Assembly: GCF_054482525.1 (NCBI RefSeq) | Contig: NZ_CM137006.1 | Length of the DNA stretch: 64,000 nt | Reading direction: 5' to 3' (one strand) | Shown here: positions 31,798-42,707 of the stretch, in pieces | Position numbering within the stretch: position 1 is the first letter of the stretch | How the letters are laid out: each line of letters begins with the position of its first letter | The notes under the pieces: generated by a model | Seen by the model: only the letters and a program-made list of their open reading frames with translations | What the model was told of the DNA's origin: nothing | Database searches by the model: none | Program-made: the position numbers and the translations under genes

Positions 31798-31855
31798 CCA
31801 GGGCAAGATTACGAAAGCCCGCTCCCTGCAAGGACTGACGCCAGGTAGTTTCTGT
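31798..31855. repeat. ~57-bp direct repeat copy 2, overlapping the 3' end of the H-repeat transposase gene
   Basis: Near-identical to 31665..31721; overlaps the stop codon region of the ORF at 31809..32945. Confidence 0.7.
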
Positions 31856-32945
31856 CCATGGCTGCTTTTCGCATCTTACGTCTTAACCCTGCCTTGAATA
31901 CATTATCATTCGTTAAAATATTAATAGCGATGTGCCGTATCCCTGAAAATAATTCTGCGGCGTTTCCTCTTCTTATTTTGCAGTCGTCTTCATTCATTAC
32001 CACGTCCAGACGCCAGTGCAGCTTATTCTCCACGTGCCAGTGATTTCGGATCGCTGTGGCGAACTTTTCTGCGGTTAAATCAGCAGAACTGATATAATAT
32101 CTGACCGTCATTTCTGGCTCTTTCTTTTGTTCTGCTATTATTGACCGAAAGGAGACTGCCACGCATAATTTCTTCAGTCCTTTCCATTCAAACGTGAAAT
32201 CAATAAGTTCATCAGGGACATCGCAAACAATATGAAGACGGATTTCTTCTCTGCCGTGACTCTTTTCACTTATTTCGTAACTGTCATGCTCTGGATTATT
32301 TAATTCTTTCAGCGGAAATTTTCCATCAAAGGCTTTATTTAGTCGTCCCTGATTTCCTTTTACAGCGAATAAATAATCACCGCCCTGTTTTTGCATCTTC
32401 TCTGCAATATCTTTCTGGCAACCCATCGCATCAGTTGTGATGATTTTTCCTTTAATATCCAGCATCTTAAGAAGTTCAGGGATAGCTGTGATCTCATTGG
32501 ATTTCTCATCCGTCCTGATCTGTCCGATAACCAGACTGTGCATTGTTGAGAACGCACTAATGACATGAATCGCTCCCTTGCGGCGACTCTTGTCATAAGA
32601 ATGCCGGAGTGTTTTTCCATCAATTGCGATGACGTCTTTATCATCTGAAGTATGGCAATCTCGCATCCAGTTAATAAAGCACTCGTGAAATTTTGCAGGA
32701 CTGATACAGGATACAACTCTGGCGATGGTATCGTGAACAGGAATACCATTTTCAAAATCACCGTATTGTTTTAAAAAATCGAGATGTGTTTCCCCAAAAT
32801 CCTCTATATCTTCCCAACCTTCCGCACCCGAAATAACGGCACAAATAGTCAACAGTAGAATATCCGATAATTTATTTTCCACTTTCCAGCCTTGTCTGTA
32901 ATCGGGGATAATAGAAATATGTTCCATCAATTTTTTAAGCTCCAT
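31809..32945 (-). CDS. H-repeat-associated protein (ISAs1-family transposase, YhhI/YdcC-like)
   Basis: 378 aa translation resembles E. coli H-repeat proteins that accompany Rhs elements ([32 protein letters not shown]...). Confidence 0.8.
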
Positions 32946-33225
32946 TTTGTTCTCCTTAATTATGTAAGGAGTATTTGATCATGTATAAGCAATAAAAAAC
33001 AGCTTTAGGTAATGAGGAATATCTCAATTTTTAAACATAAAATGCGAATTACTTAGTACAAAAAAGCAGCGTTACGTGATCTTTCCCTGGTCCCTGTCCC
33101 GGATTGTAGTACCGGTGCCAGTTGTAGTGCAGTTCGGATTCGTCGTCATACTGCTAGCCCGGATGGCGGAGCAGTTGCTCTAGTCACTCAGAATATTGTA
33201 ATAGTGATAGAGTGCAGTGCCGGTT

Positions 33226-33624
33226 TCAATATCCTAACGCTGGTCTTTTGCCTGTATTAACTGATTTAGCTGGTTTGCTACATATTAATGCCTTCAGATT
33301 TTCCCTTTCCTTGTCTGTGATACTGTCGCAAACCCTACTAGCCCATTCTACTTCACTCTTCTCCAGGCATTCTATTTTCTTATTGCTCATTGTTCTAATG
33401 TTTGGTGTTGCATCTCCATTTAATAACATCCATGTTTCATTTTTCTTCATAAAACATCTTCCATTATGTTCAAAGATATTAGGTGTGAATATATTATCAG
33501 AATCCCATGTTACGACTTGCTCGAGGGCTATATTATCTTGATAGTCCATGCCAGCATTATAATAATCACAAGATATAATTATCATGGAAATAATTATCAC
33601 TAATATATTCCCAAGCATTTCCAT
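33226..33624 (-). CDS. hypothetical small protein with N-terminal hydrophobic signal/lipobox-like segment; candidate Rhs immunity protein
   Basis: 132 aa AT-rich ORF immediately downstream of the Rhs gene; N-terminus ILVIIISMIIISC. Confidence 0.35.
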   Translation of the reverse strand: MEMLGNILVIIISMIIISCDYYNAGMDYQDNIALEQVVTWDSDNIFTPNIFEHNGRCFMKKNETWMLLNGDATPNIRTMSNKKIECLEKSEVEWASRVCDSITDKERENLKALICSKPAKSVNTGKRPALGY

Positions 33625-33873
33625 TTACTTTACCTCTTGAAATTCAAATGGGAATCCAGTGAAAGGACCTTTAGGCATAATATATCTTTGATATCCATAA
33701 AGCTCACCGAGCACTTGTAGGCTTATAGGCGCATTTGTATTCATAGAGGGGTTGTTAAACCCGCACGCCTCAAAAATCATGTTCGTTCGGCTAAAACAAT
33801 TATTTAAAACAGGAAGAGGCCCGAGGTTAATAGTTTTTAGTTTTTTATTAAGGTCTATTGCCTTATTCATCAT
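33625..33873 (-). CDS. hypothetical small protein downstream of Rhs (candidate immunity or orphan toxin-tip fragment)
   Basis: 82 aa AT-rich ORF in the same frame as the Rhs gene, beginning 11 codons after its stop. Confidence 0.3.
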   Translation of the reverse strand: MMNKAIDLNKKLKTINLGPLPVLNNCFSRTNMIFEACGFNNPSMNTNAPISLQVLGELYGYQRYIMPKGPFTGFPFEFQEVK

Positions 33874-33906
33874 ACATTGTTCTTCTTCATCTGTTGTATC
33901 TATTAT

Positions 33907-36900
33907 TCAAATCCAGGTATCTCTGCGGGGTTGCATCTTTTTAAAATAATCAGAGACAGAGGCTCCCATCTCATCCCCAGTTCCCGAACTCATTAATCCA
34001 TATCGATTTGCCGCCGCAGCATGCCCAAAAGGATTATCAGGAACGGGGCCGTTACCTATTATCATAGTACTAAGCCCTAATGGATCAACGTGTTGCACTG
34101 GATTCAGCGGATATTGGTACAGATTCCATCCCCCCTTCAGCCCAATCGGGTCCTGGATGATATACCGCCCCTGCAACGGATCGTAGTACCGGTGACGGTT
34201 ATAATACAGCCCCGACTCCTCATCGTGTTGCTGCCCTGGCAGACGGTACGGCTGGTGCAGGTGATGCGGGTTTTCCTCATTCAGCAGGTTGCCCCATTCA
34301 TCATACTCCCCGCTCCACGCCGTATTTCCGTCTTCGCTGATGAGCGCCAGCGGCAGGCCCCGGTGGTCGCAGTGGTAAAGATGAACTTTTCGCGCCGGTG
34401 TGTATTCCGGCTCCACCTGTTTTTCCAGTTGCTCCACCGTCAGCCCGCACTGCGCAAGCCACGCCCGGCTTTCACTGCTCACGCGGTCTGCCCGGATTTC
34501 CCCCTCCAGCCTGTCCAGCAGCCGCACCAGTTCAGCCGGGAACACCACGCCGTGTCCGTCCTCGCTCCCTTCCTGCTGGAGCTTCTCCGCCAGGCTCCGC
34601 CGCTGCGTTTTCTCCCGCTCGCCGTTGTCTGTTTCGATGCGGATGAGCGGTGTGAAGCTTCCCGGCTCGTATACCGTCTGGATACGTGTGCTGTCGGTCT
34701 GCACCGTCGTCAGGTGGTCGCCGTCCCAGCCGTACCACGTCACCTCCGGTTTACGCGACAGCGACATCCACCCCGTCAGGTCACGCTCCCGCCGCCATAC
34801 CCGTTTCGCCATTCGCCGTCCCAGCGGGTCGTAGAGGTAGCGGCTCTCGACCAGTGGCTCTCCATGCTGTATCCGCGTGTAGAACACCAGGCGGTGCTGG
34901 CTGTCGTAGTGGTGGGTCCGCTCGTCGTCCGTCCGTATCACACCCGCCGGGATGCGGTCCGTCTTCTCCGTCAGCCTGCCGTATTCATCGTGGCGGTAGA
35001 CATAGTGCGCATCCTCCGCGATGCGGTTATCCGGCCACACTGTGAGTGTACTGTCCGGGTGCAGCTCCGGGTCCGGCAGCCGGTTGCCCGCCGGGTCCGT
35101 GGCATACGGGATGCGGATGTCCAGGTCCGGTGCGAGGGTGCGCACGCTCTCCAGCCTGCCCGTGGCGCTGTAGCCGTATTCCCGCGTCTGTCGCGGGCCG
35201 CTGATGCGCACCAGGTCGCCGTTGTCATTCCACCCGTAGTCACGGTCATACACCAGGCTGTTCAGGTGCTGACTCTGTAACTGACCTGCGGGGGTGTATG
35301 TGCTGGTCAGTTCATATGCGGAATTACTGCCTGCCATGCTGCCGAAGCTGCGCACCGTCTCACGGTGCAGCCTGTCCCGCGTATACTCGACCAGCGGCGT
35401 CCCGCCCAGCTTCATTCCCGCCAGGTAACCGCTGCCATACGTCAGCCACTCCACCGGCGGCAGGCTGTCCGGCGTGACGCGGTTTGCCAGCCCCTGTTCG
35501 TTGTATGCCTGTTTCGTCTCATGCTGCCACAGCAGTTCCCCCGTCTCCGGGTTCTTCACCGTCTGGCGCTCACTGGTCAGACGGCCTTTATCGTCATAGC
35601 CGTAGTGGACCGCCACACGGTGGCCTTCACTGGTATGGCTGAGGGTGGTTAACCACCCGTGCTCATCCTACTGCCACTGCTCTGCCGGGTCGCCGTTCAC
35701 CGTCCGGTGCGTGATGCGGTCTGCTTCATCGTAGTACCACTGCGTGACCTGCCCCTCATCCTCGCTGCGGATGAGCTGCCCTGTGGCGCTGTACCGGTAA
35801 CGCTGTGTCCTGCCATCAAAGCCGCGCTGCTCCGTCAGGCGGTCCAGCACATCGTAGGTAAATTCACTCCGGCTGCCGTTCTCGTTGGTCAGCACGGTGA
35901 TGCGCCCGGCAGCGTCATACCCCATGCTGCGCGTCAGCCCGCCTTCCGTCACACTCACCGGACGCCCGCGTTTATCATATGCGATGGTGCTGCGTTTACC
36001 GTCCGGTGATATCGTTGCTGTCAGGTCGCCTGCGGCACTGTACTCATAACGGGTTTCACGCCCCTGCGCATCCTTCTGCCCTGTCAGCCTGCCGCGGCTG
36101 TCATAGAGACTATAAATACTGAGACCTTCCTCCCGGTGAACGGCGATTTGTTGACCGTACCGGTCATACTCATACCGCGTCATGTACCCCGAGCAGTCCG
36201 TGAAGGTCCGAAGCTGACCGTACCGGTTTCGCGTTATTCTCCGCGTTACCCCGATTCCGTCTTCCACCGCGCCGGGCAGGCTACTGCGGGGGGGAGTCAT
36301 AAAACCAGCGCGTAATGTTACCGTTGCGCGAGGTCTCTTCTGCCAGTCGGCCCTGACGGTCATATTTCCGGCTGCTGCGTAAACCATCCGGATATGTCAC
36401 TGAAGTCAGTTGCAACTGGCTGTTATAGCCATACCGCACCGTCCTGCCGTCCGGCAGTATCACTGAAGTCAGCTTTCCAGACGCCATATGCAGCCGGTAC
36501 ACCGTCCGCCGCCCCGCCGCATCCGTCTGCGCCTTCAGCCTCCCCGCCTCATCATACTCGCTGCGGGTGATGCTCCCGTCCGCATGCTCCTTCTTCACCA
36601 CCCGCTTCAGGCCACCTTCGCCTTCCGTGTACAGCACCTCCCGCCGGTTCAGGCTGTCCGTGATGGTCACACGGTCCTGCCCGTACTCAAAGCGGTAGTC
36701 AAGTCCCTCCGGGTTGACCTGCTCCGTCACCCGACCGGTATCATCATACCGGTAGCGGCTCTCCGGCCTCCCTGCATAATGGTGCGCCACCATCCGCCCG
36801 GCGTGCTCCGCATCATAAGTAAACCCGCGCACCTGCGTCCCGCTGCGGTCATACACCGCCCGCAGTTCTCCGCTGGCCGTGTACGTGTAGCGCGCCAGCG

Positions 36901-37855
36901 GCGCAGTCGGCTGTTCATCCGGGTATGCCGGGTCGTGTGTCAGCCACACCGCCTCCAGCCGGATACCGTTATCGGCACCGTATTCTGTACCGGCGGGCAG
37001 CGTGTCGGGGAAAGCTGAAGAAGAGGAAGCAGAACGGGGACCTGCAGGGGAAGATAAAGACGTGGCGCGCTGTTTACGGAAGGCTTCCGCCCGCTGCGCC
37101 TGCGTGGTCAGCGCCAGGTGAAAACGACGGCCCGCGCCGTCCGTCACCCTGGTGATTTCGCCAGCCAGTTCGCCTGCGGCCTCGCGGTGGAAAGCCAGTG
37201 AAAGCCCGAAACCGTCCACCACGCCCGTCAGCACCCGGTATGCAGGCGGCTCCGGCGGCAGCACTTCGTCCGCCTCCGGCACCCGCTCCGGCCAGCCGAG
37301 TATCCACCACGGCCCCTGAAGGCTGTTTGCCGCCAGGTACACATGCGGACTCAGGCGAACATCTTCCGGCAGCACCTGCCAGAGCGCGCTTAGCGGCTGC
37401 GAACTGTGCTGCTCCGCCACCCCGCCCCGCGCCAGCCAGAACGACTCACTGCGGCTGTAACTTATCTCGCCGGGAAACAGGGGTTCAAAGTGAATACTCC
37501 TGCCGCCACTGTCGTTGAGTATCAGGCCTTCATCGCGTATCTGTAAGCGGATATCGAAGGGGGCTTTCCAGCCGGGACCAAACACCCCCACCGGCGCGGG
37601 TGTCCTGGTTCGGTAGCTGCTGTAAGCGCGAGAAAGAATAAACGGCAGCGGGCCGGGCAGCGCAAGGTCCGTCTCGCCCGGCAGCACCTTCGCACCCAGT
37701 AGCGGGTTCACCGGGTTAGCATAGGTAATCCCTCCCGGACACACCGAGCAGGCCACTCCTGTCGGCGCACCTATCAGCCCCCCTGCTGAACCCTGCACAA
37801 TATCCAGTCCCTTGCGGGTCATGTCACCCTGCCGCGCCGCCGGTTTTCCGCTCAT
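33907..37855 (-). pseudogene. rhs: PAAR-Rhs family protein (T6SS effector type), disrupted by a +1 frameshift and an in-frame TAG
   Basis: Three consecutive ORFs (36281..37855, 35668..36387, 33907..35616) tile one Rhs protein: PAAR-like N-terminus, YD repeats, DPIGL core end. Frameshift at the G7 run 36288..36294; in-frame TAG at 35665..35667. Confidence 0.8.
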
Positions 37856-37931: not shown

Positions 37932-38381
37932 TTAAAGCCCACCTATTTCTTGCGACAGAAAAGGGATTTCTTTTTTAATCCAATCTATCATTTCATTTTT
38001 TTCAAAACATACGTTAATGCCATTCACACTTCCACATTCACCAAAACCATCAAAATAAATTTCACATTTATTATTTTTATTCGAAACAATGTCAACCCCC
38101 CATCTTATATCGTTATTCCCCTCCTTCCTGAAATACTTCATTTGCAATAAATCAATTATCTCACCAGCATAAAAATCGCTAACCCCATTCACCACCACTT
38201 TATGTTTGTATATTCTCTTGAGACCTTCCTTGCTAAGCGGGGTTAAGGTGGTAACATATGCTGGAAGATTAATTATTTCTATCGTTTTCACACTATCTAT
38301 TCCACACAATTCATTCACTCGCCCCATCCCCAATACCGAAGCAGAAAATAGAGACAATAAAACCATCAAATATTTCATCAT
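37932..38381 (-). CDS. putative secreted immunity protein for the upstream Rhs toxin
   Basis: 149 aa ORF 12 bp downstream of the Rhs C-terminal domain; signal peptide MMKYLMVLLSLFSASVLG; AT-rich. Confidence 0.45.
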   Translation of the reverse strand: MMKYLMVLLSLFSASVLGMGRVNELCGIDSVKTIEIINLPAYVTTLTPLSKEGLKRIYKHKVVVNGVSDFYAGEIIDLLQMKYFRKEGNNDIRWGVDIVSNKNNKCEIYFDGFGECGSVNGINVCFEKNEMIDWIKKEIPFLSQEIGGL

Positions 38382-38393
38382 AAAAAAATATCA

Positions 38394-41300
38394 CTATTCT
38401 GGCGTGCCATTTATTGTTGCCGTCTGCGTTGGTGTATTCACACGATAATACACTCCATTATATGCTGTTCTGGTACACTCACCTAAAGTTTTCGCCGCAT
38501 GCTGTTCAATTAAAGTGATAACTCTCGCCTCTTCTTTATTTTTATATTGTTCATCCGCACGTCTCACAAGCCCCATATAACCATCCTTATCAATAAGATA
38601 TAAGTGCGCATGAGCAAACTCATGCCCCAAACCTAATGCAGGTGATTGTGATTTCGATTTTAAATCAGTTGAACAAAATAAAGCCGCCTTACCATTCCAA
38701 TATATAGTCATTTTATCCGGGTCAAATCTAACGTCGGTTTCATCAATATACTCTATCTTTATGGTTTCTTCAGAGCTTGATAAAAAATCTATAGCTTCTT
38801 TCATTCGTGAATCTTGTTTTAAATACTCAACAGCCTGATTAAAATCACTTGGATCACCGTTAACATGGAATTTTAAACCCAAAGAATCTATAAACCGAAC
38901 AGGGTTTAATGGATATTTATACAGATTCCATTCACCTCTTAGCCCGATTGGATCCTGGGTGATATACCTTCCCTGTAGCGGGTCATAGTACCGGTTCCGG
39001 TTATAGTACAGTCCTGATTCCTCATCATGCTGCTGCCCCGGCAGACGGTATGGCTGGTGCAGGTGATGCGGGTTCTCCTCATTCAGCAGGTTGCCTCATT
39101 CATCATATTCCCCACGCCATTCCGTTGCTCCTTCGGTACTGATGAGCGCCAGCGGCAGCCCCCGGTGGTCACAGTGATAAAGATGAATTTTTCGCTCAGG
39201 TAAATAAACCGGCTCTATCTGTGCCGCCAGCCGCTCCACCGTCAGCCCGCACTGTGCCAGCCACTGGCGGCTTTCACTGCTCACGCGGTCTGCCCGGATT
39301 TCCCCCTCCAGCCTGTCCAGCATCCTCACAAGTTCTGCCGGGAACACCACACCGTGGCCGTCCTCGCTTCCTTCCTGCTGCAACTTCTCCGCCAGGCTCC
39401 GCCGCTGCGTTTTCTCCCGCTCGCCGTTGTCTGTTTCGATGCGGATGAGTGGTGTGAAGCTTCCCGGCTCGTATACCGTCTGGATCCGGCTCTGTTGTGT
39501 CTGTATCGTCGTCAGCCTGTCACCGTCCCAGCCGTACCACGTTACCTCCGGTTTACGCGACAGCGACATCCACCCCGTCAGGTCACGTACCCGCCGCCAC
39601 ACCCGTTTACCCGTCCGGCGGCCCAGCGGGTCGTAGAGGTAGCGGCTCTCCACCTGCGGCTCGCCATGCTGTATCCGCGTGTAGAACACCAGGCGGTGCT
39701 GGCTGTCGTAGTGGTGGGTCCGCTCGTCGTCCGTCCGTATCACACCCGCCGGGATGCGGTCCGTCTTCTCCGTCAGCCTGCCGTATTCATCGTGGCGGTA
39801 GACATAGTGCGCATCCTCCGCGATGCGGTTATCCGGCCACACTGTGAGTGTACTGTCCGGGTGCAGCTCCGGGTCCGGCAGCCGGTTGCCCGCCGGGTCC
39901 GTGGCATACGGGATGCGGATGTCCAGGTCCGGTGCGAGGGTGCGCACGCTCTCCAGCCTGCCCGTGGCGCTGTAGCCGTATTCCCGCGTCTGTCGCGGGC
40001 CGCTGATGCGCACCAGGTCGCCGTTGTCATTCCACCCGTAGTCACGGTCATACACCAGGCTGTTCAGGTGCTGACTCTGTAACTGACCTGCGGGGGTGTA
40101 TGTGCTGGTCAGTTCATATGCGGAATTACTGCCTGCCATGCTGCCGAAGCTGCGCACCGTCTCACGGTGCAGCCTGTCCCGCGTATACTCGACCAGCGGC
40201 GTCCCGCCCAGCTTCATTCCCGCCAGGTAACCGCTGCCATACGTCAGCCACTCCACCGGCGGCAGGCTGTCCGGCGTGACGCGGTTTGCCAGCCCCTGCT
40301 CGTTGTATGCGTGTTTCGTCTCATGCTGCCACAGCAGTTCCCCCGTCTCCGGGTTCTCCACCGTCTGGCGTTCGCCGGTCAGGCGGCCTTTATCGTCATA
40401 GCCATAGTGGACGGCAACACGGTGGCCTTCGCTCAGGTGGCTGATTTCTCTCAGCCAGCCGTGGCCATCATACTGCCACTGCTCTGCCGGTTCGCCGTTC
40501 ACCGTGCGGTGAGTGATACGGTCCGATTCATCGTAGTACCAGAGGATGACAAGCCCCTCATCTTCACTCTGCGTGAGTTTTCCGGTCAGGTCATAATGAT
40601 AACGTTGCGTCCGCCCGTCAAAGCCGCCCTGCTGTACCAGGCGGTCCAGCGCATCGTAGCTGAAGTCGCTGTGACTGCCGTTCTCGTTGGTCAGGCTGAT
40701 GACACGTCCTGCCGCGTCATACTCCATACTGCGCGTCAGCCCGCCCTGCGTGGTGCTGACCGCCTTTCCCCACGCATCGTACTGTGTCTCGCTCCGGTTG
40801 CCGTCCGGGGTGATAACGGCAGTCAGGTCGCCTGCGGCGTTGTATTCATACCGCGTTTCACGGCCCTGTGCGTCTTTCACCGAGGTTAACCGGCCACGGT
40901 TGTCATAGCGGCGGTAAAGGCTGATGCCTTCCTCGCGGTGGACCGCCGTCATCTGGCCGAAGCGGTCATACTCATAGCGGGTCTGGTAGCCCGAGCAGTC
41001 GGTGAACGCCAGCAACTGACCGTAGCGGCTCCAGGTCATCTGCCGGGTGCTGCCCGTCGCATCTGTTGTCGTGGCCGGTAATTCACTGTGCGGATTATCA
41101 TAAGCATACCGGATGACGTCCCCACTGCGCGATGTCTCCGATACCAGCCTGTCCCGCTCATCATACGCCCGGCGGCTCTCCAGCCCGTCCGGGTACACCA
41201 CCGCCGTCACCAGGTTCCCGTCGTTATAGTAAAATTTCGTCTCCCGCCCGTCCGGCGTGGTGATGTCCGTGATGTCGCCTGACACCACATTCAGACCGTA

Positions 41301-42641
41301 CTCTGTCCGCCGTCCCGCCGCGTCCGTCTGCGCCGTAAGCCGCCCCACCGGGTCATACCCGCTGCGCGTGACGCTGCCGTCCGCCAGTTCTTTTTTCACC
41401 ACCCGCTTCAGCCCGGCCCCGCCTTCTGTATGCAGCACCTCACGCCGGTTCAGGCTGTCCGTGACGGTGATGCGGTCCTGCTCATACTGGTAGCGGTAAC
41501 TCAGGCCTGCCGGGTTCAGCTGCTCCACCACCCGCCCCGCATCGTCGTAGCGGTAGCGCATCTCCGGCCTTCCCGCGTAACGGTGCGCCACCATCCGGCC
41601 CGGGTGCTGCGCGTCATACGTGAAAGCGCGCACCTGCGTATTGCTGCGGTCATATACCGCCAGCAGTTCACCGGCTTCCGTATACGTGTACCGCACCAGT
41701 GGCGCACCGGGCAGGCTCTCCGGGTATGCCGGGTCGTGCATCAGCCACACCGCCGAAAGACGGATGCCCCTGTCGGGGCCGTATTCGGTACCGGGCAGTG
41801 TGTCGGGGAACGCTGAGGCTGAGAGAGGGCGGGAACGGTCAGAAGAAGATAGCGAAGAGGTGCGGGCCTCTTCCGCACGCTGCGCCTGCGTGGTCAGCAC
41901 CAGACGGAACTCCCGCCCGGCACCGTCCGTCACGCCGGTGATTTCCCCGGCCAGGTCACCGGCGGCCTCACGCCGGTACGTCAGCGTCCGCCCGAAGCGG
42001 TCCGCCAGCCCGGTAAGCACCCGGTACGGCGGCAGCGGCGCTGGCAGTACGTCCTCAGCACCCGGCACCCGCTCTGACCACCCCAGTATCCACCACGGTC
42101 CCTGTGCGCTGTTGGTCGCCAGGTAAAGATGCGGGCTTAACCGGATATCCGGCGGCAGCGACGCCCACAGCCGTGCCAGCGTGTGGCCGTCCGGCTGCGC
42201 TGCCTTACCACCGCGAACCAGCCACATTGACTCGCTGCGGCTGTACACCGCCTCCCCCGGCAGCAGCGGCTCAAGGTGAATGCTCCGCCCGCCGTTGTCG
42301 TTGAGTATCAGTCCGTCATCACGTAGCTGTAAGCGGATATCAGAAGGCGCTTTCCAGCCGGGGCCAAAAATCCCCACCGGCGCAGGCGTCTTCGTCCGGT
42401 AGCTGCTGTAGGTGCGGGAGAGAATGAACGGCAGCGGGCCGGGCAGCGCAAGGTCCGTCTCGCCGGGCAGCACCTTCGCCCCCAGCAGCGGATTTACCGG
42501 GTTGCCCGAAGTCATCCCGCCCGGACACACCGAGCACGCCACGCCGGTGGGCGCGCCAATTCTTACACCTGCCGAACCCTGGACAATGGGACCGCCATAC
42601 TGAGTCATATCTCCCTGACGCGCCGCTGGTTTTCCGCTCAT
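38394..42641 (-). pseudogene. rhs: PAAR-Rhs family T6SS effector with HExxH (zinc-metallopeptidase-like) C-terminal domain; frame interrupted by in-frame TGA
   Basis: Main ORF 39096..42641 (1181 aa) ends at a TGA where the paralogue has TGG (Trp); the same frame continues through the DPIGL core end into a C-terminal domain containing [10 protein letters not shown]. Confidence 0.75.
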
Positions 42642-42707
42642 GATTCAATTCCTTCTTCTGTTTATTTTTAATGCTTGTTTGTTACTGAATACCGAACAGG
42701 TACGGGA

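Follow-up and report, generated by a model that had tools for sequence, protein, structure and literature searches.

A pseudogenised Rhs toxin with a retained immunity gene in the aspV/yafV type VI secretion island of Escherichia coli

This report concerns the 3′ end of an Rhs gene in a stretch of Escherichia coli DNA of 64,000 nucleotides (NCBI RefSeq assembly GCF_054482525.1, contig NZ_CM137006.1; "the window" is this whole stretch), where a toxin tip interrupted by a stop codon is followed by a small gene for a predicted lipoprotein. Among the closest described systems is Tox-Act1, the effector STox_15 of the SPI-6 type VI secretion system (T6SS) of Salmonella, which has a permuted NlpC/P60 core with catalytic H43 and C151, is toxic in the periplasm only, cuts phosphatidylglycerol and phosphatidylethanolamine to lysolipids, and is neutralised by Imm-Act1, an immunity protein with two transmembrane (TM) segments (PLoS Biol 2026, PMC12994826). 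DUF4105/Lnb is the sister clade of Tox-Act1, phospholipase activity has been detected for TseH, and the published tables of Tox-Act1 homologues include Rhs- and PAAR-fused forms, with one E. coli Rhs, QMP79959.1, listed as 'RHS+DUF4105' in the DUF4105b clade (PMC12994826). Most characterised Rhs tips act in the cytoplasm, as nucleases or ADP-ribosyltransferases (PMC12994826), and the papers on E. coli strain PCN033 name its Rhs genes merely as candidate effectors.

Set beside these systems, the feature in the window is an unremarkable Rhs toxin pseudogene whose immunity gene persists, and it does not overturn current understanding. An E. coli lineage disarmed an Rhs effector by three lesions yet kept the immunity gene, the pattern expected while a live toxin circulates in the species (about 10% of genomes). 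The intact allele appears to be an uncharacterised member of the recently recognised permuted NlpC/P60, probably lipid-targeting class, with a distinctive lipoprotein partner.

The interrupted Rhs tip and its intact alleles

The window is 99.7% identical to the aspV/yafV island of PCN033, with gmhA, fadE, ivy and yafV at 26.9-31.6 kb, then an ISAs1/H-repeat transposase and then the Rhs region, in which two tandem minus-strand Rhs genes lie downstream of vgrG, hcp and the T6SS cluster. The feature under study is the 3′ end of the second, yafV-proximal Rhs, and every part of it is on the minus strand:

34072-34086, minus strand: DPLGL, the conserved end of the Rhs core and boundary to the variable C-terminal toxin (translation; fall in G+C)
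33628-34071, minus strand: ancestral toxin domain of 148 codons, a predicted permuted NlpC/P60-type cysteine hydrolase
34021-34023 and 33796-33798, minus strand: codons of the predicted catalytic residues of the toxin, His17 and Cys92 respectively
33907-33909, minus strand: TGA nonsense codon where the ancestral toxin had TGG, coding for its Trp55 (two intact alleles aligned)
33625-33873, minus strand: open reading frame (ORF) of 82 amino acids (aa), corresponding to toxin residues 67-148, opened by an internal Met-Met and in the Rhs frame
33226-33624, minus strand: immunity gene of 132 aa, a predicted inner-membrane lipoprotein (lipobox; toxin neighbour)

A preliminary description of this DNA had noted 54 residues of tip after DPLGL, an 82-aa ORF in the Rhs frame and a 132-aa ORF, and these coordinates are confirmed on the minus strand. 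Its statement that the pieces follow without gaps is correct for the two small ORFs, where the stop of one abuts the start of the other (TAAATG), and is not correct upstream of them, where the TGA that closes the 54 codons directly 3′ of DPLGL (33910-34071, STMIIG...RRDTWI) is separated from the ATG of the 82-aa ORF by 11 codons without a stop (33874-33906), in the same frame as Rhs. The AT-richness noted for the small ORFs is real: G+C is 0.63 over the Rhs core, drops sharply at DPLGL to 0.40 for the tip, and is 0.34 for the 132-aa ORF.

Alleles were surveyed in 5426 complete E. coli genomes. The layout has not arisen by accident: a segment of 850 bp that runs from the end of the core through the whole 132-aa ORF is present in 542-566 of them, always beside an Rhs core, and most genomes with this match have a single 'hypothetical protein' annotated below it. 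A 61-mer centred on the TGA occurs exactly in 33 genomes and with one mismatch in 528, at a maximum of one copy per genome; about 528 genomes have TGG in place of TGA, and in these the Rhs frame reads on through the end of what is an 82-aa ORF in the window. The intact alleles of strains 2013C-4282, ACN002 and 50579417 all have TGG, their Rhs coding sequence (CDS) of 1406-1409 aa ends at the start of the immunity gene, and only one small gene follows it. Two intact alleles aligned with the window, 99.8% and 98.7% identical to it, have TGG, and no other difference among the three sequences makes a stop or an indel; from the closer of them the window differs by two bases, one giving TGG->TGA (33907) and the other a K6N substitution in the 132-aa protein. 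Because intact alleles carry TGG and continue to the immunity start, the 54-residue stub, the 11-codon linker and the 82-aa ORF can be taken, with high confidence, as one ancestral C-terminal domain of 148 residues that was split by a nonsense mutation at Trp55. The stub and the 82-aa piece are collinear and in the same frame, and jointly they are predicted by AlphaFold2 as one compact domain. Upstream of the ATG of the 82-aa ORF there is at most a weak Shine-Dalgarno-like stretch. The impression that the toxin tip is unusually short is thus a product of the TGG->TGA change. Neither fragment would be catalytic, since the stop at codon 55 parts His17, in the stub, from Cys92, in the 82-aa piece. 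Annotation of these genomes ought to join WP_000981126.1, the 82-aa 'hypothetical protein', to the 'short' Rhs in a single pseudogene.

The stop in the tip is one of three lesions. The Rhs core is split over three pieces in the ORF list, and the remaining features of this Rhs element are as follows:

33625-37855, minus strand: ancestral Rhs coding sequence, now a pseudogene, in pieces 36281-37855, 35668-36387, 33907-35616 and 33625-33873
36288-36294, minus strand: +1 insertion in a C7 run, which shifts the Rhs frame (C6 in a 97.7%-identical relative)
35668-35670, minus strand: TAG stop within the Rhs core frame (both PCN033 and the intact allele at the rhsE locus read TAT)
33075-33225, minus strand: orphan Rhs core-end remnant (...QYDDESELHYNWHRYYNPGQG...), containing stops and cut off by an insertion sequence (IS) element (translation and BLAST)
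31809-32945, minus strand: ISAs1-family (H-repeat) transposase closing the Rhs element, an ORF of 378 aa (ISAs1 family transposase in the PCN033 annotation)

With C6 restored, two of the ORF pieces fuse as ...WFYDSPRSSLPGAVEDG, and with all three lesions mended the Rhs frame is continuous for about 1409 codons from the ATG at 37855. The 61-mer bearing the TAG has an exact match in 32 complete genomes, and the near-identical PCN033 copy is labelled 'RHS element core protein, frameshifted' by PGAP. The yafV-proximal Rhs is a pseudogene with three disabling lesions (frameshift, TAG and TGA), and as far as can be read from the sequence no toxin can be made from it in the window.

Family, fold and immunity partner of the toxin

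Homology searches indexed on words returned a narrow enterobacterial family only, both for the toxin and for the immunity protein, and close toxin homologues are found in a few enterobacteria, including Salmonella and Citrobacter. The wider toxin family was reached only by an exhaustive profile search, which gave 353 cluster representatives, 193 of them at E<=1e-10. Many of these relatives sit on Rhs/YD-repeat proteins of up to 2489 aa, and in 112 of the 147 representatives that cover both the His and the Cys motif the domain ends within 40 residues of the protein C-terminus. Conservation over 148 sequences is complete for Asn13 and Cys92 (100% each) and nearly so for His17 (99.3%), followed by Gly16, Gly25, Arg50 and Gly30 (each 99%), Ser28 (97%) and Pro115 (96%); His and Cys are spaced 60-90 residues apart across the family and 75 apart in the E. 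coli domain. Pfam Lnb_N/DUF4105 is matched by 15 of 88 relatives (best E 4.7e-7) and PPPDE by 3, mostly under the gathering score, and in both of the relatives for which coordinates were inspected the Lnb_N match, weak at E 0.02 and 0.04, spans the region of the catalytic Cys.

AlphaFold2, run on the 148 residues with an alignment of 88 sequences, predicts a single domain with a predicted local distance difference test (pLDDT) value of 91.9 and a predicted template modelling score (pTM) of 0.87. In this model His precedes Cys, a helix begins at Cys92 so that the Cys stands at its N-terminus, and a β-strand begins at His17 and carries it, the arrangement of papain-like enzymes in the permuted form. 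On the model, the intact domain is therefore classed as a predicted circularly permuted NlpC/P60 (papain-like) cysteine hydrolase, belonging to the assemblage of YiiX, TseH, DUF4105/Lnb and Tox-Act1. Structural comparison gave values of 10.5 with E. coli YiiX, 9.8 with the Vibrio cholerae T6SS effector TseH, 9.0 with a Bacillus cereus YiiX-like peptidase, 7.7 with the MARTX RID acyltransferase, 5.1 with PPPDE and 4.7 with PLAAT4.

The 132-aa gene stands directly after the toxin tip at all loci compared (PCN033, 2013C-4282, ACN002 and 50579417), and within the 3′ end of the toxin gene it has a good Shine-Dalgarno sequence, AAGAGG (33633-33638). The N-terminus of the protein is MEMLGNILVIIISMIIISC, and the lipoprotein-like character first ascribed to it is well founded, with a lipobox IISC, Cys19 (codon 33568-33570) and Asp20 at +2. 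The pattern I-[ITV]-S-Cys19, the Asp20 and four more Cys are invariant in 8 homologues, down to 57% identity, and the Citrobacter immunity relative has the lipobox L-V-A-C-D. In E. coli, lipoproteins with Asp at +2 stay in the inner membrane (the Lol-avoidance rule), and because of this sorting rule an inner-membrane anchor is predicted here. From these sequence features and its position the 132-aa protein is predicted to be the cognate immunity protein, an inner-membrane lipoprotein; its additional cysteines are consistent with a periplasmic, probably disulfide-bonded protein.

The pairing of toxin and immunity gene extends beyond E. coli. Toxin and immunity homologues are adjacent in Citrobacter farmeri, and in Salmonella the longest contig for each of the two is 93,527 bp, which suggests that they lie on one contig. 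The preliminary description had named a lack of homologues of the small ORFs beside Rhs genes elsewhere as a ground for refuting it, and this ground does not hold, since both ORFs have such homologues in E. coli, Salmonella and Citrobacter. More distantly, downstream DNA could be read for seven toxin relatives (Citrobacter, Solimonas and five metagenomic contigs or contigs derived from metagenome-assembled genomes), and in 7/7 the product of the ORF after the toxin is a lipoprotein, a protein with a signal or TM anchor, or a small protein with two TM segments, the last of these beside two distant relatives. Envelope-type neighbours in all seven support a target in the periplasm or membrane. 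In Solimonas sp. K1W22B-7 the distant toxin relative sits on a teneurin-like/NHL/YD protein of 2489 aa, and after it comes an ankyrin-repeat protein with a lipoprotein-type signal (…FWGC-SSD; locus L004, 10480-10950), which would be an unusual and apparently periplasmic immunity candidate.

Alternative explanations and the probable target

Of the options offered in the preliminary description, the degraded cassette is the one borne out, by the TGG->TGA nonsense change together with the two further disabling lesions. It is highly improbable that the cassette is instead a displaced orphan tip, a silent spare module kept 3′ of the main Rhs. Storage of orphan modules is common at Rhs loci, the island does have another Rhs with its immunity gene upstream of the cassette, and 33075-33225 is a genuine orphan remnant. 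However, that remnant is separate from the cassette, which is joined to a full-length, broken Rhs: the core upstream is complete and opens with an ATG of its own (37855), the annotation treats the gene as a frameshifted pseudogene of full length, and repair of the lesions would give the continuous frame described above. Still less credible is a small toxin with two accessory genes, in which the 82-aa ORF would be a gene in its own right, coding perhaps for an adaptor or a further immunity protein. It is open, begins with ATG, adjoins the immunity gene and is labelled 'hypothetical protein' (the same WP_000981126.1) by PGAP in genomes with the TGA allele; but it is in the Rhs frame and collinear with residues 67-148 of the intact alleles, lacks a convincing Shine-Dalgarno, carries the invariant catalytic Cys and completes a single compact fold. 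No separate ORF exists in the about 528 genomes with TGG, so that the 82-aa ORF is confined to the lineage with the nonsense mutation, and the idea of two immunity candidates gives way to toxin residues 67-148 followed by one immunity gene. The least credible explanation is that the TGA is a sequencing or assembly error, or is read as Trp, and that the toxin is still produced at full length. Infrequent misreading of UGA by tRNA-Trp is possible in E. coli and would restore the ancestral residue; against an error, the same TGA allele occurs in 33 independently finished genomes, and read-through alone would be no rescue because the frameshift and the TAG lie upstream in the same gene.

A more substantial alternative bears on the target and leaves the pseudogene reading as it is. 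The intact toxin could be a peptidoglycan amidase or endopeptidase like Tse1 and other Tae NlpC/P60 T6SS effectors, which we regard as unlikely, if well short of negligible. It would agree with the NlpC/P60 superfamily fold and with an immunity protein that is predicted to be periplasmic, as in Tae/Tai pairs; TseH was first proposed as a cell-wall hydrolase, and a YiiX-clade homologue in the S3 table is named 'putative peptidoglycan peptidase' (both in PMC12994826). A lipid target is favoured over peptidoglycan by the permuted core taken with the envelope-type neighbours, and on this analysis we consider a periplasmic lipid target somewhat the more probable.

Putting these observations together, an Rhs effector gene of the aspV/yafV T6SS island, now dead, has its 3′ end here. 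Its product originally ended in a 148-residue toxin, one immunity gene came after it, and TGG->TGA at Trp55 divided the toxin into a stub of 54 residues and an in-frame remainder that forms the 82-codon ORF. Once delivered by the T6SS, the intact toxin would have its target in the periplasm, with membrane phospholipids or other acyl-lipids as the likeliest substrates, and the 132-aa lipoprotein, held at the inner membrane through its Asp at +2, would block it. Genomes with the TGA allele have no second copy of the toxin, and their immunity gene, which is still intact, is probably still useful, about one in ten E. coli genomes having a live toxin copy; continued selection on the immunity gene in the TGA lineage is what we infer from this. 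A broader proposal can be put forward tentatively and is about as open to doubt as to belief. The intact tip, in ~10% of E. coli genomes, may be an Rhs-delivered, periplasm-acting and lipid-directed toxin of the permuted NlpC/P60 kind, with a new, disulfide-rich and inner-membrane-anchored lipoprotein type of immunity, representing at least 350 clusters at 50% identity that lack a Pfam model and are distinct from Tox-Act1/Imm-Act1, and the TGA lineage may keep the immunity protein as a stand-alone shield against armed kin. An Rhs-borne tip with a lipoprotein immunity partner would in any case be a convenient system for studying how Rhs-encapsulated toxins reach a periplasmic or membrane target.

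Several observations weigh against this interpretation. Pfam searches with the stub, the 82-aa ORF, the 132-aa ORF and the joined tip, and NCBIfam searches with the toxin and the immunity protein, gave no meaningful match, so the E. coli toxin query matches no Pfam or NCBIfam model. A domain-only profile found no solved relative among PDB sequences (an earlier profile had been swamped by the Rhs core ends contained in its alignment), and the link to YiiX and TseH is therefore at the level of fold only; Foldseek matches in the PDB were weak and not significant, with a best E of 0.23. The spacing of His and Cys is 75 in the E. coli tip as against 108 in Tox-Act1 (H43/C151), and the immunity proteins differ as well, that of E. 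coli being a predicted lipoprotein with Asp at +2 and a single signal peptide, and Imm-Act1 having two TM segments. The label of peptidoglycan peptidase has also been given to, or proposed for, YiiX-type proteins and TseH, which makes a cell-wall target possible. Finally, the immunity allele in the window carries K6N (33607-33609; MEMLGK->MEMLGN), by which the sole positive charge of the n-region is lost, and this makes the efficiency of export uncertain; judged by the signal sequence, K6N might lower export or lipidation of the predicted lipoprotein. The common immunity allele, WP_000425544.1 (a cluster of 672 members), has Lys at position 6, and the K6N allele is linked to the TGA allele of the toxin.

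Cassette mobility, the neighbouring Rhs and comparison with known systems

In 2013C-4282, ACN002 and 50579417 the cassette locus reads yncH-vgrG-rhs ... pptA-yddH-nhoA, which is the rhsE position. The cassette is 99.8% identical between the window locus and the rhsE locus, on Rhs cores that differ (about 60-90% identical): identity is complete (100%) between about 34157 and the 3′ limit of the immunity gene, and stands at 88-100% over the 1.5 kb before 34157 and at 57-86% farther upstream. The identity continues past the immunity gene, where the next 151 nucleotides (33075-33225), with the remnant ...QYDDESELHYNWHRYYNP..., are 100% identical at the rhsE locus of 2013C-4282, and an ISAs1 element comes after the remnant at both loci. 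Tip, immunity gene, remnant and IS element shared by differing cores therefore form a module common to different Rhs cores, as expected for cassette exchange, and the toxin/immunity cassette layout suspected in the preliminary description is supported by the occurrence of the same pair on different cores and loci. At the rhsE locus of 2013C-4282 (L002, 7489-8811), a group II intron reverse transcriptase/maturase (ltrA) lies between the orphan Rhs remnant and ISAs1.

The other Rhs of the island, the vgrG-proximal Rhs1 (38394-42656, minus strand), has a nonsense codon of its own, TGG->TGA at 39096-39098 in the conserved motif EYDEWGN (EYDE*GN), which leaves an N-terminal ORF of 1181 aa and a C-terminal ORF of 162 aa; PCN033 has TGG here and an intact protein of 1420 aa. 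This stop is present in 0/5426 complete genomes and is therefore private to this strain, and, with the lesions in the yafV-proximal Rhs, it leaves both Rhs effectors of the island inactive here. Compared with PCN033, Rhs1 also has ~12 clustered substitutions with a 9-nucleotide in-frame deletion (41823-41877, minus strand), a cluster that looks like a short gene-conversion tract between Rhs copies, and a separate 6-nucleotide in-frame deletion (39716). Its toxin tip is AT-rich (about 38394-38900). The 149-aa ORF after Rhs1 (37932-38381, minus strand) begins with a typical secretory signal peptide, MMKYLMVLLSLFSASVLG, and the immunity partner of Rhs1 is therefore predicted to be periplasmic as well.

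As a genetic element, the yafV-proximal Rhs resembles the classical E. coli Rhs element, all parts of which (core, DPxGL, variable tip, immunity gene, orphan fragments and H-repeat/ISAs1) are found here in the same order and with the same fall in G+C. It differs in the predicted site of action, which is cytoplasmic for most classical tips and periplasmic for this one. Several relatives of the toxin can be set apart. TseH, with its partner TsiH in V. cholerae (PDB 6v98), is free-standing and not an Rhs tip, and shares 7% sequence identity and no profile-level match with the E. coli domain. YiiX and YaeF (Peptidase_C92; PDB 2if6 and 3kw0) are housekeeping proteins or of unknown function and not toxins, at 9-13% identity, and the Pfam Peptidase_C92 model is not matched. 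DUF4105/Lnb_N (PF13387), the Bacteroides lipoprotein N-acyltransferase, is a model that relatives match and the E. coli domain does not at E<=1, and Lnb is a biosynthetic membrane enzyme, not a toxin. Tox-NlpC/P60 (canonical C, H, D) and Tox-PL1 of Zhang et al. 2012 (PMC3482391) were considered and rejected, their order being unlike the His-then-Cys order here. The accessions of the window proteins are absent from the supplements of the Tox-Act1 paper (PMC12994826), with which no accession overlap was found; one relative (P0041), which occurs on metagenome scaffolds only, equals the listed Alistipes protein CCX52983.1 in length, at 175 aa, and is at most a possible match to it.

Tox-Act1 itself is a near counterpart, judged by its published description. 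It and the E. coli tip are both linked to the T6SS as antibacterial toxins and share a permuted NlpC/P60 core and a His...Cys dyad, by prediction in the case of the tip, and in both there is no direct Pfam match, remote similarity to DUF4105 and TseH, and immunity located in the envelope, again by prediction for the tip. They differ in their mode of carriage, Tox-Act1 being a stand-alone cargo effector and the E. coli domain the C-terminal tip of an Rhs, of which the window holds a pseudogene copy.

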